From assembly GCA_048882485.1 (NCBI GenBank), contig JBHLRP010000015.1, forward strand, positions 8,327 to 67,536: a stretch of DNA of 59,210 nt, read 5' to 3'. Shown piece by piece: positions 12,362-38,305 of the stretch. The notes below the pieces were generated by a model. It had not been told where the DNA came from. It was given only the letters and a program-made list of their open reading frames with translations, and did no database searches. The DNA comes from Candidatus Thorarchaeota archaeon (GTDB lineage: Archaea; Asgardarchaeota; Thorarchaeia; Thorarchaeales; Thorarchaeaceae). The stretch's first letter is position 1, and each line of letters opens with the position of its first letter. Both the position numbers and the translations under genes were made by a program.

Positions 12362-14704
12362 ATGAAAAAGAAAGCCTACTTCAAAGCTGATGAGGCTAGG
12401 ACCGCTTTAGGTATCTTCAAAGGTCTTGAGGTCCAAATCGGTCAGATCGTTGATGACGAATGGGATGAGCAAATGGGCCCAACCCCAATGCCAGGTCCAA
12501 CCGGACTCCGTTCTTGGGACCACCAACTCTTGTCAAAATACCAACCATCCTACATGCCCTATTGTCAGGTCTGTTGCCTATGTACTTTTGGCAAATGTGA
12601 CCTCTCTGGAGACAAACGAGGCGCTTGTGGGATTGACTTGAAAGGGCAACAGGCAAGGATTGTTCTTGCAGCAGCCAATATAGGCAATGCAGCACACTTG
12701 GCTCATGCGAGACACTTGGTTGACCACTTAATTGATGAATTTGGTCCCCAGACCAATCTCATTCAAGGGCCTGGCACTGAGATACATGCACCTGTTTCAC
12801 GATTGGCAACTGGAATGCGACCTAGAACTCTCGAAGATGCAAGCATTATCCTTGACTATTGCGAAAGTCAACTGGCCCACACTCTCTCGGCAGTACATAC
12901 TGGGCAAGAGGGAAGCTGGTTGGACTTCGAGAGTAAGGTTCTCCATGTTGGTATGATTGATCAAATAAGCATGGAGATTGCAGACCTTGTTCAGATTGCA
13001 ACTTTGGATTTTCCGAAAGCCGATCCAGAAGCACCACTTGTGGACTCTGGCATGGGAATGATGGATACCAATAAGGCAATCATTCTGACCATTGGCCATA
13101 ACATTGTACCAGCAGCATCGATAACTGACTACATTACTGAGAAAAAACTTGGAGGGCAAGTTGAGGTAGGCGGGATGTGCTGCACCGCTTGGGACATCAC
13201 ACGACGTGATCCAAGCGCCAAGGTTGTTGGGCCAATCTCATGGCAGCTTAGATACATACGAAGCGGGAAGGCAGATGTAGTGGTAGTTGACGAACAATGT
13301 GTCAGGACTGATGTTGTCAGTGAGGCTCAAAAAGTGAAAGCGCCAGTCATTTCGACCAGTGACAAGGCTGTTATGGGACTGCCTGACAGATCTGGCGACT
13401 CAATTGACTCTATTGTGGAAGAACTTGTATCAGGGAAGATACCCGGTGCATATATCCATGACCGCCATAAGGTCGGAGCGGTGGCGACCAAAGTAGCCCT
13501 CGCTATAATGCCAAAGAGGAGGAAGATGAAATTCTTCCCAACAAAGAAGCAAATCCAGAGGATGGCGCAAGATTGCAGAAAATGCAGCGAATGCATTCGG
13601 TCATGTCCAAATAACCAGCCAATCATGGAAGCTGTGCTGGCGGCGCAGACAGGGAACTTCGAACCGCTACGTGATGTCTATCGTAACTGCATTGGATGTG
13701 CACGGTGCGAATCTGCTTGTCCCAATGGCTATGATTTGCACAGTTGGATGGTTGTTGCAGCAGAAAAAGACTGCAAGAATGAGATTTACAAGCTTCGAAC
13801 AGGCAGAGGCGCAATTCAGGACACTGAGATTCGTAGTGTTGGGCAACCCATCGTCTTTGGTGAGATACCTGGAGTAATTGCGCATGTTGGCTGCGCCAAC
13901 TATCCAGGCGGAGGAGAGGCCATTCACGAAATGGCTGAGGAGTTTGCAAAGCGAAGATACATCATATTGACATCTGGATGCGCAGCGATGTCAGCAGGCT
14001 CTGTAAGAGATGAGAACGGACAATCAATCTATGAGCGACGTGGTGGCGAATTTGATGCCGGTTGCGTAATCAATGTCGGCTCGTGCGTTTCCAACCCCCA
14101 TATCGCTGGTGCTGCAATCAAGATTGCTGCTATTTTTGCCAAGAGGAACTTACGAGGCAACTATGCAGAGATTGCCGACTATATCCACAATCGTGTAGGT
14201 GCAGTGGGGATATCTTGGGGTGCCATGTCACAAAAGGCTGCATCAATTGCTGCAGGATTCTGGAGACTCGGTGTTCCTGTGATTGTAGGACCACATGGAT
14301 CCAAATATCGCAGGATGCTACTTGGCAAAGCAGAGGAGGAGCGGGCTTGGACTGTCTATGATGCGCGCACTGGAGAACGCGTAGTAACTGCACCGGGTCC
14401 TGAACATCTATTCTATGCCGCTGAAACTGTCGCAGAAGCCAATATGATGACAGCAAAGCTCTGTATTAGGCCCAATGACACTGGTAAAGGACGATCCATC
14501 AAACTGAGCCACTATATTGACATCCACGAGAATTCGTATGGCTTCTTCCCGGAGGATGTTTGGAGGTACATCCGTCGCGAATCGGATATTCCAATCACAT
14601 TGAAGGACAAGATTCTGGCTCAGATGAAGGAGAACAAGTGGAAGGAAAGGACAATTCCGGATCCAACGCTTCTCAAGGAGCTAGTCATGGGAAGTGGCAA
14701 ATAG
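12362..14704 (+). CDS. cdhA: CO dehydrogenase (ACDS complex) subunit alpha
   Basis: MGPTP.P, CC.CTFGKCDL...GACGI, C-cluster ligand motifs GHN/GMCCT/DEQC/GCANY/SGC/GSCVSN, two ferredoxin motifs, C-terminal IPDPT. Confidence 0.97.
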   Translation: MKKKAYFKADEARTALGIFKGLEVQIGQIVDDEWDEQMGPTPMPGPTGLRSWDHQLLSKYQPSYMPYCQVCCLCTFGKCDLSGDKRGACGIDLKGQQARIVLAAANIGNAAHLAHARHLVDHLIDEFGPQTNLIQGPGTEIHAPVSRLATGMRPRTLEDASIILDYCESQLAHTLSAVHTGQEGSWLDFESKVLHVGMIDQISMEIADLVQIATLDFPKADPEAPLVDSGMGMMDTNKAIILTIGHNIVPAASITDYITEKKLGGQVEVGGMCCTAWDITRRDPSAKVVGPISWQLRYIRSGKADVVVVDEQCVRTDVVSEAQKVKAPVISTSDKAVMGLPDRSGDSIDSIVEELVSGKIPGAYIHDRHKVGAVATKVALAIMPKRRKMKFFPTKKQIQRMAQDCRKCSECIRSCPNNQPIMEAVLAAQTGNFEPLRDVYRNCIGCARCESACPNGYDLHSWMVVAAEKDCKNEIYKLRTGRGAIQDTEIRSVGQPIVFGEIPGVIAHVGCANYPGGGEAIHEMAEEFAKRRYIILTSGCAAMSAGSVRDENGQSIYERRGGEFDAGCVINVGSCVSNPHIAGAAIKIAAIFAKRNLRGNYAEIADYIHNRVGAVGISWGAMSQKAASIAAGFWRLGVPVIVGPHGSKYRRMLLGKAEEERAWTVYDARTGERVVTAPGPEHLFYAAETVAEANMMTAKLCIRPNDTGKGRSIKLSHYIDIHENSYGFFPEDVWRYIRRESDIPITLKDKILAQMKENKWKERTIPDPTLLKELVMGSGK

Positions 14705-14709
14705 TGGTG

Positions 14710-15261
14710 ATGAGACCAGTACCCTGGCAGACAGGGGAGATTTGTGGCCCTGATTGTGCAAAGTCACTCAACAAAGCCGCTCAACTCAAAAGAACCTTCA
14801 CAAAATCAAAGAGACCCCTATTGATAGTGGGATCAGATGCAGTTAACATGACACATGTGGAGGGTGACATGATAGACTATGCAATAGCCCTTTCAAAGGC
14901 GGCAAAGATACCTGTTGTTGCGACTGGAGGCGCAATCAAGACCTTTATGGAGAAGGGTTTTGAGGGCTGCAAATCAATGGGTGCAATGGAATTAGCAAAC
15001 TCACTTCAGGATGAATCGTGGCCAGGCCCCCATGAAAGAGGCCCTCACGATTTGATTTTGGTCTATGGCATCCCGTACTACATGGAATGGACGCTGCTAT
15101 CTGCAGTCATGAATTTTGGTGCCCATCTGACAAAGGTTTCTCTGGGGCGCTATTATCAACCACATGCAGATTGGTCATTCCCGAACATGAAAGAGCAGCA
15201 GTGGCACGAGATTCTGGATGAAATTCTGGAGTTTGTGGGAGGAGGGCGGACCAAATCATAG
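14710..15261 (+). CDS. cdhB: CO dehydrogenase (ACDS complex) subunit epsilon
   Basis: PWQTGEI.GP, KRPLLIVG, IPVVAT, L.D..W.G, GIPYY, YYQPHADWSFPN. Follows cdhA directly. Confidence 0.92.
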   Translation: MRPVPWQTGEICGPDCAKSLNKAAQLKRTFTKSKRPLLIVGSDAVNMTHVEGDMIDYAIALSKAAKIPVVATGGAIKTFMEKGFEGCKSMGAMELANSLQDESWPGPHERGPHDLILVYGIPYYMEWTLLSAVMNFGAHLTKVSLGRYYQPHADWSFPNMKEQQWHEILDEILEFVGGGRTKS

Positions 15262-15293
15262 AGATTTCGATTAGAATTTACTGGAGATGATAC

Positions 15294-15518
15294 ATGATGC
15301 GATTGGCTGTTCTAATTCAAGCTGCTGGAAAGGAAATATGGGAAGCCTGCCAAGAAATTGAGAAGATTGAGGGTGTTAAGACTGTCCTAGTCGTAATCGG
15401 GACATTTGATGCAATTGCATACGCAGAACTACCCTCGACGAAAGGGCTACGACATCTCCTAGACAGCATCCACAGAACAGAGGGAATCATTAGGACTGAA
15501 ACCTGTATAGCAATATGA
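15294..15518 (+). CDS. Stand-alone Lrp/AsnC ligand-binding (RAM) domain protein
   Basis: AVLIQ...GKE......IEGV....V.G.FDAI...I....GI.RTET.I pattern, 74 aa. Confidence 0.85.
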   Translation: MMRLAVLIQAAGKEIWEACQEIEKIEGVKTVLVVIGTFDAIAYAELPSTKGLRHLLDSIHRTEGIIRTETCIAI

Positions 15519-15805: not shown

Positions 15806-15847
15806 TTTCTTTGGAGAAAGAAAAACAGAAGGGAGCGTGTGCTCCCT
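15806..15847 (-). terminator. Hairpin plus U-rich terminator after the mtd-fusion gene
   Basis: AGGGAGC-GTGT-GCTCCCT inverted repeat followed on the minus strand by TCTGTTTTTCTTT. Confidence 0.55.
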
Positions 15848-17543
15848 ACTTTGCCTTCACAAGTTGCTCAGGCGGATGGATTTTTCCTGTGAGTACCAAC
15901 TCTTTCAAGATAGCGCGCGCCATTTCGAGTGCAGAGGCATCGTCATAGATTCCCTTTCCCTTCTCGCGTGCCTCCGTGAGAATATCTCTTTGAACCTTGA
16001 GCTTAAGGTCGCCAACGGCTAATGGTCCAATACCGAATTTGCCAGGGGCTAATTCCCTCAAGTCGTCAGATGGCTTTAGGTTTGCAATACCAGGTGGAGG
16101 AACGGCATTTGCATCGAGTAGTATCTGGTTGGCTGGCACATTCTCAAGAAGGTCTTTGGTCACGAGTTGAATGCCTGGAGCGCCAGTCACAAAGACAAGT
16201 GTTGCTTTCTCCAATGCAGCTTGTGTTTCTTCAGGTGTTGAGGCCCGAATGCCCCTAATCTTGAATTCGTCCGTCGACAAGCGTTTTGCTACCTCTCTAG
16301 CGCGGTCGGCACTTCTTGAGGTCAGGGTGGTCTTTGCACCTGCAGCTCCGCATAGCGCGGCAACGCTTTCACCTACAGGTCCAGTGCCTGCGAGTACGAG
16401 CACTTTCACCTTGCTGAGTGATTTCACGCCCATGGCTGGAAGGGAGGCTTCCGCCTTTGCAACCAAAGCAGCCGATGTGGTAAATGCTCCATGAGGATCA
16501 ACGACTACTGCTGTCGTAAATGGCTTGACCATAGCCTCTTTCACATCTTTGGCCATCTTCCGAGCAGTAGGCACGTCACGTCCTCCCAGGAAGAAACTCG
16601 TTCGCTTCACGCCCTTGACACCCCTGGAAAAGATAGCATCCTGAACAAGCGTTGTAACGTTGTCAGCTGAAACTCTTGGATAAGGCACCACGACATCAAA
16701 ACCAGCGTCATACGCAACGCATATGTCAAAGGGACTGGCGTATTCATCCGCCTCTAAGAAAAACAGGATGTTCTGCATCTTAGTCTTAGGACGCTTTACG
16801 ACAGGCACCATTTTCACAGAGGAAATCCCTGTCAGTTCGGTGATGCCTTTCACCTTACCCCCAGGGGCCTCTGAAGCTACGCTCTTGAATGATATGGGTA
16901 TGACCTCTACGTTGAGGGTTTCCATAAGTTCTCTTAGGCCTTGGAAGTGTTGCGGACTGCAGAGATGTAGCGCCTTGACTTTCTTCTTATTGAGAGAATC
17001 GGCTTCCTTGAGAATGCCCATCGCAATCCAGCTCTCACGGATTCCAAACTCGATGTCGCGGATCTCATCCTCAAGCTGATTCTGTAGATACTGACCATAC
17101 GTAGCAAGCTGGTCGATCTGATGGACCGTTTCAGAGTCTTCATCACGTTCAGAGAGAGACTCTATGGCTTCGAAAATCTCATTTCTTCGGTCAATCTTTT
17201 GCTCGAGACTATGAGCCAAGTAGGAACGAGCGAACTCATCCATGTCGACAGCCCTATAGGGGACTCCTAGCTTGGCGAGTGTTTCCACGAGTGGATTCAT
17301 CTCTAGAAACTCTTTTGTAGAACGCATCCCCATCTCATCTGTGACAAAGTCAGGTTCCTCCTTCTCGGCCAATGATTTTATCATTTCACAATAAGCCATT
17401 GAGGCGCGCTGAATGAATCTTATTCCAGACTCTGATTCCTTCAACGGAGAAGAGGTCACCCACCATGGTTCATCGTAGGCTTTCTGCACCAACAGTAGGC
17501 GAAGGCTCTTCCCTTTCAGTGGAGTAAGTTCAAGTGTTTCCAA
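15846..17543 (-). CDS. NAD(P)-dependent methylene-H4MPT dehydrogenase (MtdA/MtdB family) fused to an uncharacterised N-terminal domain
   Basis: The C-terminal ~310 aa carry SPFD..VAYDAG.D, LVQDAIFSRG, FLGG, DP.GA.TT.AA.V, GTGPVG, D.NAVPP.GI, GIGPLAVG.LK. The extra ~250 aa at the N-terminus are unassigned. Confidence 0.85.
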   Translation of the reverse strand: METLELTPLKGKSLRLLLVQKAYDEPWWVTSSPLKESESGIRFIQRASMAYCEMIKSLAEKEEPDFVTDEMGMRSTKEFLEMNPLVETLAKLGVPYRAVDMDEFARSYLAHSLEQKIDRRNEIFEAIESLSERDEDSETVHQIDQLATYGQYLQNQLEDEIRDIEFGIRESWIAMGILKEADSLNKKKVKALHLCSPQHFQGLRELMETLNVEVIPISFKSVASEAPGGKVKGITELTGISSVKMVPVVKRPKTKMQNILFFLEADEYASPFDICVAYDAGFDVVVPYPRVSADNVTTLVQDAIFSRGVKGVKRTSFFLGGRDVPTARKMAKDVKEAMVKPFTTAVVVDPHGAFTTSAALVAKAEASLPAMGVKSLSKVKVLVLAGTGPVGESVAALCGAAGAKTTLTSRSADRAREVAKRLSTDEFKIRGIRASTPEETQAALEKATLVFVTGAPGIQLVTKDLLENVPANQILLDANAVPPPGIANLKPSDDLRELAPGKFGIGPLAVGDLKLKVQRDILTEAREKGKGIYDDASALEMARAILKELVLTGKIHPPEQLVKAK

Positions 17544-17627
17544 CTTTCGTATCTCCTTATATTTCGCTGAGAGGTTAGAAGCAAGGAACCAACTAAAGGA
17601 CTATGAATACTCATTTTTCTGGAAACC

Positions 17628-17647
17628 ATGACAACAATATTTGTCAT
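17628..17647. promoter_or_regulatory. Palindromic operator ATGACAA-N6-TTGTCAT upstream of the mtd fusion
   Basis: Perfect 7-6-7 inverted repeat; near-identical site at 22393-22412. Confidence 0.6.
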
Positions 17648-17674: not shown

Positions 17675-19009
17675 TCATTTCTGAGAGTGACGGGTCTTCG
17701 TCTGTGAGTGTGTAGCACATGACACACAAGGGTCAAAACAGCGTATAATCATCTTGGCATAATTGATGATTCTATCATCTGACCATCCCAATTCACTGCA
17801 TTCTCTAGTAGCTTTGGTCAGCAAATGGACCATGGCAGCAGCATTCAGTTCTGTCGGAGTACAAATGTCAATATCGTTCACAAGCCCACTTGAACTGACT
17901 TCAAGCCGATAAAGCAGAGTTCCTCTGGAATTTTCAACGCACCCCCCACCTATGCCATCAATTGGGTCCCAGGTAGCTACTGTGTCCTCATCTGGTTTCC
18001 ATATGTTGTCAAGAAGATGGAGTGCCCTGAGAGTACAGAACTCCATTTCATCTAGTCTAAGCAAACCGGCATTGAACACATTCGGACCATCTCTGACGAT
18101 GCCTTCTTTCTGACCTGACAGATTCTGAATCGCAGCTAATCTTGCATGCGGACCAGTCAACAAGGGACTACTGGGTTCTTCCTTACAGCTATAGATGATG
18201 CGAGTTGGTGCCTCTGATTTTCCTTGAATTTTCAAGTGGGTAGGATAGACAGAAGAGGAGAAAGCGCAAACGAGGGAATCAGATTGGATAATTGAAACTT
18301 CATCTGTGCCTGAAAATCGATGTCCCCTTGTATCAAAGCAACTCACAAACAATGGTGATTCGAGATAAAACGACAGGATATCATCCTGTATTTCGTTGAG
18401 GATTGATTTGTAGAAATCCTTTGCCCATTTGATTCCAGCTAATCCAAGCTGCAAAGAGCTTCGCATCTCCTTTTGCTCTTCATCTGTTATGTTGCGAAGA
18501 AAGCCGCCTAGTGCTATTGCAGGCGCCAGGTTGGCATCGCCGGCTATTATATCGATCATCTCTTGAGCACTTCGGTAGAGATTCATTCCCTGAGAGAGAA
18601 GACGCTGCTGAATCCTTCCTTTTCCCAGTGTATCCTGTCTGGAGAGTGTTTCTGTCAAGCTAAGCAGATCGGGGGATGTACAGAAGAATACACTATATGC
18701 GTGTGAACGGATAATTTCACCCAGGATGGCAAGTTCTCGAAGTGTTTCAGCTAGCGGTGGCACAGAAATACTACTCGCCATTTCTATGGCCTTAACAGCG
18801 GCGATTCTATGTGAAACAGGACATGTCCCACAGATTCGTGCAACTAGCCTGGGCAAGTCTGCAATTCGCTGACCACGGAGAATCTGAACGAAATCCCTGA
18901 ATGTTTTCATTCGATATGTCAGATTAAGTTCGCCTCGAGCAGGGTGCCGAATCAACAGCTCACTTGGGCCGCCAACCTTGGTGAAGGGCTTTGACAACGG
19001 TATCTTCAT
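17675..19009 (-). CDS. mvhA: Group 3 [NiFe]-hydrogenase large subunit (MvhA-like, divergent)
   Basis: L1 RICGTCPVSH and L2 FDPCVSCATH plus a C-terminal extension. RVEG/RGFE motifs altered to KVGG/RDFV. Confidence 0.85.
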   Translation of the reverse strand: MKIPLSKPFTKVGGPSELLIRHPARGELNLTYRMKTFRDFVQILRGQRIADLPRLVARICGTCPVSHRIAAVKAIEMASSISVPPLAETLRELAILGEIIRSHAYSVFFCTSPDLLSLTETLSRQDTLGKGRIQQRLLSQGMNLYRSAQEMIDIIAGDANLAPAIALGGFLRNITDEEQKEMRSSLQLGLAGIKWAKDFYKSILNEIQDDILSFYLESPLFVSCFDTRGHRFSGTDEVSIIQSDSLVCAFSSSVYPTHLKIQGKSEAPTRIIYSCKEEPSSPLLTGPHARLAAIQNLSGQKEGIVRDGPNVFNAGLLRLDEMEFCTLRALHLLDNIWKPDEDTVATWDPIDGIGGGCVENSRGTLLYRLEVSSSGLVNDIDICTPTELNAAAMVHLLTKATRECSELGWSDDRIINYAKMIIRCFDPCVSCATHSQTKTRHSQK

Positions 19010-19740
19010 TAGCTCTTTCCCAACTCCGGTTTTTGATAGCGAAGGGCAAGAGCCGCTAGTTTGCGGATCTTAGGACTGATTTTCAAGACGGAGAAGAAGT
19101 TCGCTATGGCTGCGGGCATACTTCGCTTCAATGTGCCAAAGCAGCCATCACATGGTGTTCCTGCCATCAGACACCTCGCCTCACAACCGGCCCTTGTGAT
19201 TGGACCCAAGCAGAGGACACCTTCCCGAATAAAACAGCTCTTTGGAGGCCTTGGTGGATTGATGCAGTTGATTTCAGTGGAGTAGTCTTGGTCCAGTGTG
19301 TAGGGACACTCAGCGCAGACATTCTTGTCAGGAAGAATGAAATCGGTCCCTTGAATCGCAGAGAGCAATAGGTTTCCCGTTAGATACTGAGGCGGAGGAC
19401 AACCCGGAAGCAGGGCGTGCAAATCAACATATTTGCCCACTGGGCACACTTGCATGTTTTCCGATTGACTCATAATACCACCAAGGACTGCACATGTTCC
19501 TAGAGCAACTATCTTCGCACCATCAGTGTAGAGCTGACGAATGAGATTCGCTTCGGATTCACTTGTAACACACCCTTCTACAAATGCTATCTCTGCTCGT
19601 TTAACAGAATTCTGGTCGGAGATGATTGGGAAGTAGCAAATATCCGCTGATTTTATGATATCAGGAAAGACAGGATTCGCGAGTAGCGAAAACAAACACC
19701 CGCTACAAGAGTTGAGTTGGACGAAGGCAAGTCGAGTCAT
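19009..19740 (-). CDS. mvhG: [NiFe]-hydrogenase small subunit (MvhG-like)
   Basis: SCSGC, VEG, GTCA..GG, PGCPP, VCAEC, CF...G.LCLGP.TRAGC.A.C...G.PC.GC.G; translationally coupled to both neighbours. Confidence 0.9.
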   Translation of the reverse strand: MTRLAFVQLNSCSGCLFSLLANPVFPDIIKSADICYFPIISDQNSVKRAEIAFVEGCVTSESEANLIRQLYTDGAKIVALGTCAVLGGIMSQSENMQVCPVGKYVDLHALLPGCPPPQYLTGNLLLSAIQGTDFILPDKNVCAECPYTLDQDYSTEINCINPPRPPKSCFIREGVLCLGPITRAGCEARCLMAGTPCDGCFGTLKRSMPAAIANFFSVLKISPKIRKLAALALRYQKPELGKS

Positions 19741-22268
19741 GTTTCAGTCGCCCCTCTCAAATCTTCTGCGAATTGATTGATATGATCTGCCACTATATGC
19801 CCTTCCAATGCTGATACTTTCAACACACGCACTCTGTTTTGTAACTCAGGCCCCAGAAACTCAATGAGCGCTTCAATCCGCTTAGTAGCTACTTGAATCC
19901 CATCGAGATGTCTACAAGCAGTTTCATGACACCCAATTAAGGTGATACCATCAAACCCAGCCTGTAGCGACTTTATTAGAAGATCGGCATCAATAGACAC
20001 GGTACATGGCACGCTGAGGAGGTAAGATCCTGCGTCATATTCGTACCGACGAGTGCCTGCATTGTCTACAGCAGGATAACCACAAGATTCACAACACAAG
20101 ACTAGAATTTTGGGAGATTGTTTCCCTTTTGATAGAGCTGAGATTGCAGCCCACATTTCATCCTGAACTCTCGATGCAGTAATAGCACCCGTGTGGCATA
20201 CGACCGCACACACTCCGCAGTTTCGGCATCCAAAGGAATCTATACGAATCGTATTCTCAACGAGTGCTATGGCATTATGAGGACACGCCTCGACACACAG
20301 ACCGCAAACTCCACATTTATCCTGGTCGACAATTACCATCAACTCGCCAGTTTCAAAACTATCGCGACCAAGAAAGAGGAGCGCCGCCAAGGCTGCTAGT
20401 TGTGCTTCACTCTCGAGCTGGGGATATGACTTAGGACCTGTTACAGCGCCACAAGCCCACACGCCCGTTGGAAGACTCTGGGCGTCCACAAATCCTCCAG
20501 ATTTGAGATTGAAACCAATTTCAGCTTGGAGCTTCGTCATGCGCTCATCTGGAGTCATTCCCATGTTGAGTACTATTAGGTCCCCACTGAAGTCACCAAC
20601 ATCAGTCTTGATAACATGATGACGCTTCCTCATGTACGATTGCAGGACATTGCAGACATGTACACGCTCATCCTCAGGAATTATTCCAGTGTGCGGGTTT
20701 GGTAAGCGTGAACGCTCGTATAGAACCTCGACTGAAATCTCGTCATCCATATCATCTATTAGACCCAAGTATTTGTGTGCAACATTGCAGCAATAGCCGG
20801 AACAGACAGTTTCAGAACCTACACACTGTAGGATGATTAATGATTTCACAGGCTTCCCATCGGAAACGCGAAGGATTCGTCCTTGAGTGGGGCCATCAGG
20901 AGCAAGCATGCGTTCAAATTCGTAGGATGATACAACATCATTGTAGGGATCATAGGACAAGGGAAGAGAAGAAGTCGAATCTTCAGCATTAGGAAGAACT
21001 GCACCAGTGGCTAAGATAGTCCCTCCAACGGTGAACTTGACAATCTTAGATTCTTGATCCAAATCTATTGCATGTGATGGGCATGCCTCCAAGCAGTCAC
21101 GACATGACTTGCAGAACTCGATATCGTCTACCTCAATGACGGGCTTATGAGGATAGGCAAATGGACAAGGCAAGTGAATTATTCGATGTTGTCCGATGCC
21201 AAGCTCAAACTCATTGGGCCTGGTTTCTGGGCAGGCCATGGTACATTCTCCACACATTGTGCAGCGAGTTAGATCGACATAGCGTGGAGATTGGATGGCT
21301 GTGACTTCATAGTTGCCCGCCTCTCCTGTTATGCTTGCGAGTTCGCTTTCCGTGAAAATGCGCACGTTTCCAGCAAGCATGACCGATGAAACCAGCTCAC
21401 TAATCATACAAGGGCTGCAGTCTGCTGACCCATGTATTCGTTCCCAGTGTCTAGCAGCTCCACCCAGACAAGGAGCACTCTCGATTAGTATCACATCTAA
21501 CGGAGACTTGGAAAGCACGTTAGCTGCAGTCAATCCTGCAATTCCCCCACCGATGATGGCCACGCTCTTGCGAATGGGCACCACCCTCCTTGTAGCATGA
21601 ACATAGTGACGCAGCTTCGCCACACTGGCCGCAATCAATAGCAGTGCTTTTTCGGTAGCAGACTCAGTATTGCGACGATGGACCCATGAGCAATGCTCTC
21701 TGATATTGGCGAACTCAACAGGCATCTCCAGTTGTTCGCATATCTTGCTGAATAAGTCATGGTGCAATCTTGGAGAACAGGCTGCGACTACCAGACCATT
21801 CAGAAAGTGCTTACCGCACCACGACTTGATCTTCTCTACATTATCTAGCATGCACAGGAAGGGGAAAATCCTCTTGGCCCTGACAGTTGGTAGCTCTGAA
21901 ACTTCTTCTATGAGTGCTGTTGTGTCTATCGCACGATCAATCTCAGACCCGCATGAACATAGGATAACGCCAACTCTGTGAACCCTATCAATGGTTTCAG
22001 TGATGTGTGCCTCAGTTAGCCTACCGGTCATTAATTGATCTTTTGTTGACATGAGACGGACTGCATTCTGACCTGCTGCTGTAAGCCTATAGAGGCCGTG
22101 ATGCTTTTCTATGAATCCATCTAGCTTCTTGAGATGATAGTTTAGTAGGCCAGTTTCATCCAGTCCTAATCTACTCAATAGGGTCTTGTAAGGAACCAAC
22201 CGATCGGAATCAAGAATCTTCAGTATCTTTTCTCGCAAAGGATGTGCGAGGGCAGCGTATATGTTCAT
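19737..22268 (-). CDS. hdrA: ArsR-type winged-helix + HdrA (FAD, Fe-S) + ferredoxin + MvhD fusion protein
   Basis: N-terminal IYAALAHPLREKIL...LLNYHLKKL...YRLT.AG wHTH; GVILCSCG, AACSPRLH, NIREHCSWVH, GGGIAG, DCSPC, EFERML, QCVGS, CSGYCC, GPK; four ferredoxin motifs; C-terminal MvhD CCESCGY/VPC/GCH...C. ATG 22268 preferred; the ORF is open to 22394. Confidence 0.9.
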   Translation of the reverse strand: MNIYAALAHPLREKILKILDSDRLVPYKTLLSRLGLDETGLLNYHLKKLDGFIEKHHGLYRLTAAGQNAVRLMSTKDQLMTGRLTEAHITETIDRVHRVGVILCSCGSEIDRAIDTTALIEEVSELPTVRAKRIFPFLCMLDNVEKIKSWCGKHFLNGLVVAACSPRLHHDLFSKICEQLEMPVEFANIREHCSWVHRRNTESATEKALLLIAASVAKLRHYVHATRRVVPIRKSVAIIGGGIAGLTAANVLSKSPLDVILIESAPCLGGAARHWERIHGSADCSPCMISELVSSVMLAGNVRIFTESELASITGEAGNYEVTAIQSPRYVDLTRCTMCGECTMACPETRPNEFELGIGQHRIIHLPCPFAYPHKPVIEVDDIEFCKSCRDCLEACPSHAIDLDQESKIVKFTVGGTILATGAVLPNAEDSTSSLPLSYDPYNDVVSSYEFERMLAPDGPTQGRILRVSDGKPVKSLIILQCVGSETVCSGYCCNVAHKYLGLIDDMDDEISVEVLYERSRLPNPHTGIIPEDERVHVCNVLQSYMRKRHHVIKTDVGDFSGDLIVLNMGMTPDERMTKLQAEIGFNLKSGGFVDAQSLPTGVWACGAVTGPKSYPQLESEAQLAALAALLFLGRDSFETGELMVIVDQDKCGVCGLCVEACPHNAIALVENTIRIDSFGCRNCGVCAVVCHTGAITASRVQDEMWAAISALSKGKQSPKILVLCCESCGYPAVDNAGTRRYEYDAGSYLLSVPCTVSIDADLLIKSLQAGFDGITLIGCHETACRHLDGIQVATKRIEALIEFLGPELQNRVRVLKVSALEGHIVADHINQFAEDLRGATET

Positions 22269-22392
22269 AGTTTTATCGCCCTTTAACTTGACTAGTTCTG
22301 GTGGAGCCTGCAGCAGCCAAGAGCTTCCCGTGCTCGGCAGGACACCGAAACTCGCAGTTTCATTGTCAAGCCCACATTCTTTGCTAGCAATC

Positions 22393-22412
22393 ATGACAAT
22401 AAATGTTGTCTT
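22393..22412. promoter_or_regulatory. Palindromic operator ATGACAA-N6-TTGTCTT upstream of the hdrA fusion operon
   Basis: Same arms and spacer length as 17628-17647, with one mismatch. Confidence 0.55.
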
Positions 22413-22559
22413 GTAAAGGATGCTTCTTATCAGGACATGTCATAAGTGAGACGAAGACGCAACGAGTATTGACGCGGTTCTTCCAAATCATGGTTTGAGA
22501 TCTTGTTCCAATTAGGGAGAGCGTGTTTCACTTGTCTTTTGATTATCTATAAGAATCGC

Positions 22560-22618
22560 AAAATGAAAGGGCGCTCAGCAGTGTGATAGGGCCAGTTCCC
22601 CAAATGCTCTACTCATAC
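22560..22618 (+). repeat. Dispersed repeat type A (hairpin with compensatory changes)
   Basis: Core + GTGTGATAGGGC...GCTCTACTCATAC. Confidence 0.85.
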
Positions 22619-23015
22619 TATATTCGGTCCGTGACTTATTTCAATCGTCACCAGAATTAGTATCGACCCTTATCTGATTCGCGGGCTCGATTTTCTGATA
22701 AGTCTGGAGTATATTTCAGGCCCGGATAATATTGGACTAGAAATGTGGTGGAAAACGATGGAATCACTGCTAAAATGACTCAGAATTTCACTTGTCCGGC
22801 AGAAAGACAAAGACGGTATATTGAAGATGCAGAGGATCATCCTTGATACGCCTAATATGAACAAATGCTCTCAGATGACTCTCCGCACATTGTTCGAGGT
22901 ATCTTTCGACCTGAATTTCACTTGTTGTTGTTAACAGATGCTGAATCATTTAGATAGCCCCTTATGCACGGCTCTAGACTCTAATGGCAATGCATGCTTC
23001 TTGGTGAGAGTGAAT

Positions 23016-23330
23016 TCAAGCTGCCTCCTGTGTTTCTTGTTCCATTTCCCACTCATCCTCCCCCAGCTCATCCCTCAATAAGCGGATCAAGCGGTTTCTG
23101 GTTATTGCAAAGGTTTCTTGTCTTAGAGCGGTTGTTATGACAGCCAAACTCCTGACAAGATCAAGAATTGGGTATTCACTTGAGCTTGCCAGCCATTTCT
23201 CCTCCTCAAGTATCTCGTCTACCTCTTCTAGGTCTGCTGGCAGATTGATTTCCGATAGAATATGCATAGCATCTCTTCTAAGACGGCTCAATGATTCCGA
23301 TAGTAGATGGATTCTTTCGTTCCCTTCCAT
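23016..23330 (-). CDS. Hypothetical helical acidic protein
   Basis: ORF open to 23411; ATG 23330 follows a purine-rich RBS. No family recognised. Confidence 0.55.
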   Translation of the reverse strand: MEGNERIHLLSESLSRLRRDAMHILSEINLPADLEEVDEILEEEKWLASSSEYPILDLVRSLAVITTALRQETFAITRNRLIRLLRDELGEDEWEMEQETQEAA

Positions 23331-23837
23331 TCTAGTCCCCTCTCTTTTCTGAAATTGGAGCTTTGTGGTCCAATAATGTGCCGCAAATAGACTTGTGCCA
23401 ATCCAATCCATGGCACGGGTTCTCAGAATCTGATGTCATTTTTTCTCTCAATTGTATTCACTTCTAAGTCATTCTTTACATCTAATATGGCTGAAAAAAC
23501 AGGATTCGGATTTAGTACCCAACCTTTGATGTCCGTGATGCATCCAAAGTAATGACCATGAAGGCATCAATTCTTGGACCGAAGGCTGCTTTCTCCAATG
23601 CTATGTCTGTTCTTAGTATATCTAGCAGTTAGTGCGAAGACTTCCGCTTATAAATATAATCAAAAGATTAATAGAACACTATAAAAATTATACAATCGTT
23701 ATATAAATTATTATCTTTAGAATTGTAACTCCACACCTTGGAATATGAATTGTTGTGAGAGTATCAAGTGCATGGTTCAATCTGAAAGTATTTAGTCATG
23801 AACCTTAAGCCCGTGCAGTCAAGGACTGTTATTCATA

Positions 23838-25142
23838 TTGTCAGAGAACCCCATAGAACTAGACGGCGCAGATTCTCCTAGTCCAAACTATGAAGGAAGT
23901 GTACTTACTGTACTAAATCTCTCTCTGGTGACGTTCCTAGTCATCATTGGTCTGAGCATGGTCGCACCAATTCTTCCTACTTACGCGGAGAGCTTTCAAG
24001 TCTCTTACACACTTGTTGGTTTTGTTGTGTCATCCTTTGCAGTAATGCGAATGCTTCTTGATTTGCCTGCAGGTCTTTTCTCAAGGAGGTTTGACAAGAA
24101 GAAAATCATGATGTCAGGCTTGGTTCTAATCTCTACATCATCCGTGCTGGCTGGTTTCGCTCTCAACTATTCTACTCTTGTTATTGCTCGAATGATCGAG
24201 GGAGCAGGTTCAGCTCTGTATGTCACCACAGCAACAGTGTTCCTTGCTCAAATCTCTGGAGAGGAGAAGAGGGGACAATGGATGAGTCTTTACATGGGAA
24301 TGTTGCTTCTCGGTGCCATCTTTGGACCAACATTTGGAGGTATTATTGCAGACGTGTATGATATTCGTGCACCCTTTTTTGCCTACGCATTGATAACAGG
24401 CATTAGTTTGATTCCAACATTCGTATTGCCAAAGCTGCCTAATTCCGGAAATGGCTCTTCTCTTTCCCGAAATCAAATCCTCCATGACATGAAGGAAGTT
24501 CTCTCCACCCCCTCGTTCCTCTTGGTGACCTTTGCAGTCTTCACAACATTCTTTCTGCGAACAGGGGTGAGAACTACGCTAGTACCCCTATATGCGGCTA
24601 ATAACTTGGGGCTAGACTCCGGTGCCATTGGCCTCATCCTTACTATTGGGGGAGTAACAACAGCTCTTACAATTACACCGATGGGAAGTGTTTCAGATAG
24701 AATTGGGAGAAAGATTCCCCTAGCATTATGCCTTATTCTGACTGCGGGAGTTACGTTACTAATCCCACTATCTACAGATCTGTTCACGCTGTCCTTTGCT
24801 ATGGCAGTATATGGAGCGGTCATTGGGTTCTCGGGTCCTAGCGCAGCCTATGTGACTGATGTATCACCACAGGACAAATTGGAGATATCCATGGGACTCT
24901 ATCGAATGATCAGTGACTTTGGTTTCGTCGTGGGACCTCTTCTACTTGGCCTTTTAGCAGACATAACAGCCACTCCTGTAGTTGGAGCATCCCACTCAGG
25001 TCTAATTGGATTGGTTCCTTTTGTGGCGGCATCAATTATCCTTATTGTAGCATTCTTTGTACTCCTAAAGGCTGATGATCCAGCAAAGGATAGAAACCAA
25101 TTGAAGAACAGAGAAGTACAGATTTCTGACGCTCGAAGATAG
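23838..25142 (+). CDS. MFS transporter (DHA1-like)
   Basis: 12 TM; PAG..SRRFDKK and GSVSDRIGRK motif A, ARMIEGAG, GPTFGG. Confidence 0.92.
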   Translation: MSENPIELDGADSPSPNYEGSVLTVLNLSLVTFLVIIGLSMVAPILPTYAESFQVSYTLVGFVVSSFAVMRMLLDLPAGLFSRRFDKKKIMMSGLVLISTSSVLAGFALNYSTLVIARMIEGAGSALYVTTATVFLAQISGEEKRGQWMSLYMGMLLLGAIFGPTFGGIIADVYDIRAPFFAYALITGISLIPTFVLPKLPNSGNGSSLSRNQILHDMKEVLSTPSFLLVTFAVFTTFFLRTGVRTTLVPLYAANNLGLDSGAIGLILTIGGVTTALTITPMGSVSDRIGRKIPLALCLILTAGVTLLIPLSTDLFTLSFAMAVYGAVIGFSGPSAAYVTDVSPQDKLEISMGLYRMISDFGFVVGPLLLGLLADITATPVVGASHSGLIGLVPFVAASIILIVAFFVLLKADDPAKDRNQLKNREVQISDARR

Positions 25143-37318: not shown

Positions 37319-38305
37319 TTATTTTGTAAATTGATACTGTTGATAATCGTTCTTGCAAGGATATCCTACCGCCAGATGAACCATACCGGTGCCAAGTTCA
37401 CAGAACCAAGAATAGATAGTGCCTCCAGGGGGATTATTCAGGTGCTCACATATACCAGTATTATGACTCCTACAGATTCTCTTGATGTCTTCAAGATTTA
37501 TGTCATTATTGGATTGAGTGAACCATTCCATGATTCGACGATGATAGGTCCATGCCCGGTCATCCTTTGGCATAGAGTCCAATTCTTTCATACTATCAAG
37601 CATGAAGAAATTACACACGATTCTAAGGTTGCCCTCAGAAATTTCGGCATCGACCCTTATTGGCGTGCATTCCACACGTGCTGAAACCCCTGTCTTGTCA
37701 GCGACAAGATATACTATTGGCCGAACATGAGGAATACTCTTTAGATATTCGACGGTTTCTTCAACACTAGAGAAATTGTCTAGCGACCATCTTGTAGCAA
37801 GACTCTCAAGAATACCTACTCCATTCTCTCCAATATAGAATGGAATGGAGGCCGATCCTATTGCCAGTCCAGTTTCATTCAATCCATCAAAGCATCCAAG
37901 ATCAGCAAAGTTGAAACCAAGTACAGAATGCTTTCCTACTGGTTTCGTCTGAAGCAGATTAAGAAACTTGAGATCATCTTCTATCCAATCCATGTGGCGC
38001 ACAAAGATAGGCAGTCTATTGCGAGTGCTTTCTCCCTTTACAAAAAAAAGATTACAACCATTTGAAGCCACAGGGAGAATATGTGTAGCAAGAATCTGCG
38101 GATACTCCAGACCTATTCCATCTGAAAATCCTCTCAGCTCGTCAAGTAGATCAGGGGCATGTGCCCTCACTGCGTCTTCACAGGCATATGCGTACTCCAA
38201 TCTCTCATTATCAGGAGTATGATATAGTGGCTTATCAGCCCTCCGGGACCTTCCAAACGCCTTTCCAATTTCGTAGTAGCTACCTTCGAGCTGTAGATAT
38301 TCCAA
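37319..38305 (-). CDS. Peptidase C45 / acyl-CoA:6-APA acyltransferase family (Ntn hydrolase)
   Basis: LEGSYYEIG..FG, P.LLDELRG, GCN nucleophile, R.MDW, DGLNE.GL, D..G...VE. Confidence 0.85.
   Translation of the reverse strand: MEYLQLEGSYYEIGKAFGRSRRADKPLYHTPDNERLEYAYACEDAVRAHAPDLLDELRGFSDGIGLEYPQILATHILPVASNGCNLFFVKGESTRNRLPIFVRHMDWIEDDLKFLNLLQTKPVGKHSVLGFNFADLGCFDGLNETGLAIGSASIPFYIGENGVGILESLATRWSLDNFSSVEETVEYLKSIPHVRPIVYLVADKTGVSARVECTPIRVDAEISEGNLRIVCNFFMLDSMKELDSMPKDDRAWTYHRRIMEWFTQSNNDINLEDIKRICRSHNTGICEHLNNPPGGTIYSWFCELGTGMVHLAVGYPCKNDYQQYQFTK

Follow-up and report, generated by a model that had tools for sequence, protein, structure and literature searches.

The window analyzed here, a 59,210-nt stretch of contig JBHLRP010000015.1 from a Candidatus Thorarchaeota archaeon, carries a three-gene module that is very probably a transcription regulator with a small regulon that can be named. 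It is composed of a domain of the winged helix-turn-helix type (wHTH) fused in frame to HdrA and MvhD, followed by mvhG and mvhA, and on balance we favor its being a one-component H2/redox-sensing transcription factor built from the MvhAG-MvhD-HdrA chain. The parts of this proposal differ in strength. Judged from the sequences, specific DNA binding by the wHTH can be predicted with high confidence, and control of the module's own operon and of a nearby mtd gene appears likely; redox switching through the cofactor chain is fairly likely, while H2 as the signal has an even chance or slightly better for the family, and less for this copy.

The wHTH, HdrA, and MvhD parts share a single open frame without internal stop (19737..22394, minus strand, 885 aa). 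In the numbering of this frame, Pfam detects a DUF7347/HTH_20 wHTH at residues 45–114 (E 6.8e-13), ferredoxin and FAD domains C-terminal of it, and an MvhD domain at residues 763–880 (E 1.4e-26), and residues 140–747 match HdrA (5ODC_A, E 4e-100), which bears out the in-frame wHTH-HdrA-ferredoxin-MvhD arrangement proposed in an earlier sequence-only reading of this DNA. The wHTH had been placed there in the first ~85 residues from position 22268; indeed, alignment of relatives identifies ATG 22268 as the conserved start, giving a protein of 843 aa that opens with the wHTH. The ATG at 22394 was rejected as the start, the 42-aa extension that it adds being found only in relatives at least about 89% identical. 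The AlphaFold model of the fusion has a mean pLDDT of 82.6 and HdrA as its top structural match; a linker of ~15 residues, with pLDDT below 50 at residues 84–94 (843 numbering), joins the wHTH to the HA3 domain. The putative recognition helix carries T39, G40, N43, H45, and L46, which are invariant among 28 aligned members, and there is no cysteine within residues 1–82. Predicted as a homodimer complex, the wHTH scored 0.27 against a mark of 0.42, a value to which no weight is given here.

Table 1. Coordinates of the module, its operators, and the likely target gene in the window.
Feature	Position	Strand	Remarks
wHTH-HdrA-MvhD fusion gene	19737..22268	-	843 aa; ORF, Pfam and HdrA structure matches; frame open to ATG 22394
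ArsR-like winged HTH (DUF7347)	22023..22268	-	residues 1-82; profile match 1Y0U, E 2.3e-6
HdrA domain	20154..21977	-	HA3, FAD site, C284/C287, inserted and C-terminal ferredoxins; HA4 cysteines in this copy
MvhD [2Fe-2S] domain	19755..20117	-	Pfam and cysteine alignment
MvhG-like small subunit	19009..19740	-	12 invariant cysteines (54/54)
Group 3-related [NiFe] large subunit (mvhA)	17675..19009	-	RxCxxC, DPCxxC, and Arg kept; 10-aa C-terminal tail
Likely target gene (mtd)	15846..17543	-	~225-aa domain X + MtdA/B-type NAD(P)-dependent methylene-H4MPT dehydrogenase; MtdA 6TLK, E 6.5e-42
Operator 1	22394..22411	.	11/12 match; 143 nt 5' of ATG 22268; rank 3 genome-wide
Operator 2	17629..17646	.	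12/12 match; 103 nt 5' of mtd gene; rank 1 genome-wide
Conserved TTCAT(A/C)G(T/A/C)C element	17593..17607	-	about 22 nt downstream of operator 2

The search for this architecture across archaea that the same reading had called for was run with a profile of the wHTH-HdrA junction, and 120 of 400 Asgard genomes matched at the N-terminus, nearly always once per genome, a count that takes in a few remnants; the complete three-gene module is also present in Bathyarchaeia. The matches are concentrated in the family of Loki_b32 and bin108 (89 of 135 genomes), with 6 of 19 in the Hermodarchaeum family and 8 of 85 in the family to which the window belongs; several other families among the 400 genomes gave no match. 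Loci were named in Lokiarchaeia, Helarchaeota, Hermodarchaeum, and Jordarchaeum. Complete fusions were recovered 109 times, and 61 of them form a non-redundant set below 90% identity. When placed in trees with the canonical rows used, the HdrA core (wHTH removed) and MvhA each form one clade, with matching deep splits, and purifying selection acts on all parts of the module (dN/dS at most 0.22), the wHTH being among the most constrained (0.04–0.13) and mvhA the least (0.14–0.22). The matching clades, the selection, and the spread together indicate an old, co-inherited module and not an error. A lost stop codon or a misassembly, either of which had been named as a possible origin of the fusion, is rejected, as the fusion recurs in relatives down to ~35% identity.

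Some relatives depart from the common arrangement. In one genome of the window's family (G382, L210:4501-6474), the wHTH is fused in frame onto the X-MtdA gene, and hdrA-mvhD, mvhG, and mvhA are deleted; in another genome (G367), a 103-aa remnant is all that is left of the fusion. The f32 family (L204, L205, L207) retains HA4, has its helix altered to TSGKLNFH, and carries the fusion divergent to a molybdopterin oxidoreductase (FwdB-like) gene.

Two FAD-site residues of the fusion, K499 and E452, are found in all 61 aligned members and correspond to K409 and E356 of 5ODC. K409 is the lysine at flavin N5 (PMC6405883). In the solved complexes, electrons reach the FAD via MvhD and a conserved cysteine pair, and from there they part, one passing to HdrB through HA4 and the other taking the shuttle cluster HA3, which sits on a rotating arm formed by the HdrA termini and MvhD (PMC12350162, PMC13580544). 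The input side of this path is kept: HA3 cysteines are present in 58–61 of the 61 fusions, and the cysteine pair and MvhD cysteines are essentially invariant. The exit is often lost, since HA4 ligands are retained in about 11/61, namely the Thor and Hermod copies including this one, and lost in about 50/61. Two segments, RxxGKGxEE and HPKLRP, are missing from 61/61 fusions and present in all six canonical controls, so that calling the HdrA of this copy complete is right for its cluster cysteines, all of them present, and overstated for these segments. The module proteins also miss the curated HdrA/VhuA/VhuG/VhuD cut-offs, with 355–496 bits against 1100–1400 for HdrA, 89 against 800 for VhuA, and 124 against 450 for VhuG.

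The earlier remark that hdrBC is lacking from the window stands and can be extended: the contig has no CCG/HdrB gene, and no co-transcribed hdrBC was seen in the loci examined. Many HdrB/CCG genes are present in trans elsewhere in this genome, with 46 CCG domain matches, and HdrD-like genes lie 3–10 kb away in 13 of the 61 loci. The genome also codes elsewhere for a group 3b-type hydrogenase and a conventional selenocysteine-type MvhAGDU-HdrA. The locus of a conventional HdrA-MvhD-MvhG-MvhA set (L194, G000 C46, about 22540-23970) includes a separate VhuU-like peptide with an in-frame TGA, likely selenocysteine, in the L2 motif, the usual Pro of DPC being Cys.

Coupling of mvhG and mvhA to the fusion was read correctly from the start, as mvhG overlaps its upstream gene by 4 nt and mvhA by 1 nt. 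MvhA carries the L1 and L2 CxxC motifs and the active-site Arg by which [NiFe] hydrogenases are recognized; its family forms a clade of its own (99/96) separate from the 3c and 3b rows that were used, and its best solved match is MvhA. In this copy, the RxEG Glu is replaced by Gly, the RGFE Glu by Val, and EAPRG reads ENSRG. The RxEG glutamate serves in proton transfer and the RGFE glutamate in Mg binding. The former is absent in 4/4 members of the window's clade and retained in 47 of the 48 members outside it. The missing RxEG Glu, the C-terminal tail, and the position of mvhA as the least constrained gene suggest that H2 input may be weak in this copy. Among Loki-type large subunits, 38 of 42 stop at the terminal His, and the bacterial sensor HoxC likewise has no C-terminal extension (PMC8229454), a trait that is not unique to sensors. 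With HA4 lost in most members and the glutamates lost in the window's clade, turnover has been cut at differing points by branch, and the input chain, wHTH, and operator have been kept; this copy represents a branch whose HA4 is intact and whose hydrogenase is weakened, in a family with signs of decay.

The palindromes that had been pointed out in the window as ATGACAA-N6-TTGTCAT sites lie at both operator positions of Table 1, and their number within the window is at chance level, 16 of 100 shuffles giving at least 3 matches; the weight of the operator comes from its conservation across genomes and not from the window alone. A consensus seeded from the window's own sites, TGACAA-N6-TTGTCA, occurs with at least 11/12 matches upstream of 25/60 fusions against 0.08 in shuffles. 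The refined consensus, TGAYAA-N6-TTRTCA, lies upstream of 40/60 fusions and of 18/414 other genes in the same loci; 10 of these 18 are FrhB-like and two are domain-X genes, which leaves a background of about 6/414. Counted by operon starts of the non-redundant relatives, 52/60 carry the operator (at least 11/12). In one Lokiarchaeia branch, an FrhB/FdhB-like gene, which could be a target or an F420H2 input, heads the operon (L047:8784-9902 and 10 similar loci), and the operator precedes the frhB-like gene in 10 of the 11 loci where it does so.

All 12 close loci also have the operator ahead of mtd, at 97–103 nt from the start of the gene. When the 3.96-Mb genome was scanned with a matrix, the top rank went to the mtd site, which was outside the training set, and the third to the site of the operon itself. 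The site at rank 2 (L192, G000 C2:12790; 12/12, before a 444-aa gene) was dropped from the regulon because one relative has it although its assembly lacks the regulator, and another has the regulator but not the site. The own operator has decayed in 3/4 members of the window's clade, and the divergent f27 and f32 families have no upstream site of at least 11/12. In 12/40 own promoters, a TATA-like box stands immediately upstream of the proximal operator, and the conserved element downstream of operator 2 may be a weak TATA box. A Bathyarchaeia locus has a perfect variant, AGACAA-N6-TTGTCT, ahead of neighboring diaphorase/hydrogenase genes. A third 11/12 match in the window (38220-38237) has a low matrix score and is probably due to chance.

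The mtd gene lies downstream of the module in the window and is divergent in Loki-type loci. An MtdA-like gene is found in 113/120 fusion genomes versus 31/280 others, counts that kinship inflates; in the window's family, fusion and mtd occur together in 8 genomes, the fusion alone in 1, and mtd alone in 2. As this genome also codes for an F420-dependent Mtd, it has two routes for the same step. Domain X (16869-17543) belongs to no Pfam family, and its fold matches ChaN/EreA-like proteins only weakly, at Z 8.0–8.8, tied with unrelated rows. It includes a long coiled coil and is either fused to MtdA or represented by one to several stand-alone paralogues beside the module (L064, L030, and others). 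On its other side, mtd is met by the convergent genes of CdhA and CdhB (CODH alpha and epsilon) and of a stand-alone Lrp/AsnC ligand-binding domain (12362-15518), neighbors that the module does not have in those more distant loci that were annotated.

We propose that a dimer would bind TGAYAA-N6-TTRTCA by its two wHTH domains. H2, or a different low-potential donor equilibrated with it, would feed electrons into MvhA, from where they would travel by way of MvhG, the ferredoxin clusters at the C-terminus, MvhD, and the CxxC pair as far as the FAD; with HdrBC not co-transcribed, they would stay there, the cofactors reporting the ambient reducing pressure. Rotation of the HA3 arm with redox state could then, speculatively, reposition both wHTHs and switch binding; such a switch is plausible because the linker between the wHTH and the HA3 domain is flexible. 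The outputs would be repression of the own operon and control, perhaps activation, of the MtdA-like gene, setting methylene-H4MPT turnover by the NAD(P)(H) route versus the separate F420-dependent Mtd. SurR of Thermococcales activates from upstream of the TATA box and represses from downstream of it (PMC12162507); with the own operator downstream of a TATA-like box and the mtd operator upstream of a possible weak one, this rule suggests autorepression and mtd activation.

The sequence-only reading had offered a sensor or an autoregulating enzyme. Its regulatory half gains strong support from an operator that moves along with the start of the operon and keeps a fixed distance before the MtdA-like gene; the H2 signal stays presumptive, and weakest for this copy, because the hydrogenase glutamates are lost while HA4 is kept. 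The module could instead be a trigger enzyme, a working H2-dependent, possibly bifurcating, enzyme with HdrBC, HdrD, or another acceptor in trans, and self-repression as a sideline, as in PutA, a fully catalytic flavoenzyme with an N-terminal DNA-binding domain whose flavin redox state controls its own genes. Such an enzyme would make use of the FAD Lys/Glu, HA3, and the ferredoxin clusters, all intact, of HA4 in the window's clade, and of the CCG proteins, the HdrD-like genes, and the frhB-like genes that head 11 operons. It is nevertheless an unlikely reading, given that HA4 is gone from most members and the two conserved segments from all, that no hdrBC is co-transcribed in the loci examined, that the genome has conventional paralogues, and that the operator stands before a separate gene too. 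The loss of HA4 in most members favors the sensor over a plain autoregulating enzyme.

A regulator might also answer to another signal, be it the redox state of ferredoxin, F420, or NAD(P)H, or nickel/Fe-S supply via assembly of the partner, with the hydrogenase becoming vestigial in this lineage. We consider this rather improbable. The window's clade has indeed lost the RxEG Glu, the RGFE Glu, and the EAPRG Pro, its family contains the wHTH-mtd fusion and the 103-aa remnant as decay products, and methanogens rewire their use of Mtd under nickel limitation (PMC12350162); however, the large subunit retains its Arg and four Ni-Fe cysteines, MvhG has lost none of its cysteines, dN/dS is well under 1, and the RxEG Glu persists in nearly all members outside this clade. 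A further reading makes the wHTH an inactive or purely structural add-on and assigns the palindrome to a different regulator, for instance one of the further wHTH proteins of the same type in this genome; it is very improbable in view of the nearly invariant recognition-helix residues, the conservation of the operator across classes, its movement with the operon start, and the flanking of the module operon by the genome's two best conserved sites.

A one-component H2/redox sensor of this build would have no exact counterpart among the systems compared. The module is derived from the MvhAGD-HdrABC of hydrogenotrophic methanogens (PDB 5ODC, 8RVU, 9SW2), with which it shares the HdrA fold, the FAD Lys/Glu, HA3, the CxxC pair, MvhD, MvhG, and a group 3-type large subunit; it differs in its N-terminal wHTH and operator, an identity of about 25-30%, a separate clade, the lack of co-transcribed HdrBC and of two conserved segments, and, in most members, the loss of HA4. 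HdrA-MvhD fusions as such are already known (NF041891 and NF040770 matches, under cut-off). Like HoxBC-HoxJ-HoxA of Ralstonia/Cupriavidus (group 2b, PMC8229454), the module would tie a dedicated hydrogenase to transcription and, in most members though not in this copy, lacks the C-terminal extension of the large subunit; it is, however, archaeal and group 3-related, has neither PAS kinase nor response regulator, no histidine kinase gene being found in the conserved module, and bears its output domain on the flavoprotein. With SurR it shares an archaeal ArsR-like wHTH, a palindromic operator, and, as proposed here, redox control of H2-related genes (PMC12162507), whereas SurR, a small protein that stands alone, switches through a CxxC in its wHTH and has the operator GTTn3AAC, and the module's wHTH is free of cysteine and linked to a flavin/Fe-S chain. 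The folds are unrelated to those of PutA, from which the module also differs in that most members have lost the electron exit.

The H2 sensors that we found described are bacterial and signal via kinases or PAS domains, and the literature searched, which lay largely outside the subscription journals, yielded nothing relevant to an HdrA that bears a DNA-binding domain or to a sensory [NiFe] hydrogenase in Asgard archaea. If the proposal is true, a DNA-binding hydrogenase-HdrA complex would represent a novel type of sensor, and the bifurcating HdrA fold would have been put to non-catalytic use. The chances are evenly balanced that the whole picture holds, namely an archaeal H2 sensor in Asgard and Bathyarchaeia in which a repurposed [NiFe] hydrogenase-HdrA switches DNA binding by arm movement and selects C1-pathway redox enzymes (NAD(P)-Mtd, FrhB-like, diaphorase-linked hydrogenase). 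The module occurs frequently in Lokiarchaeia, and models of how eukaryotes arose build on the H2-based syntrophy of this group; a named regulon raises the question of whether H2 pressure makes these cells switch their C1 flux, and some of the "group 3c MvhADG-HdrA" calls behind inferences on Asgard energy metabolism may be regulators. The putative sensory group C [FeFe] hydrogenases likewise join a hydrogenase to a signaling domain, and differ in being [FeFe], bacterial, PAS-linked, and without HdrA (PMC11216029). At the Bathyarchaeia locus (L215:347-5589), diaphorase genes and a [NiFe]-small-subunit/[FeFe]-domain hybrid lie behind AGACAA-N6-TTGTCT, and this hybrid resembles the hybrid hydrogenases of PMC11216029.
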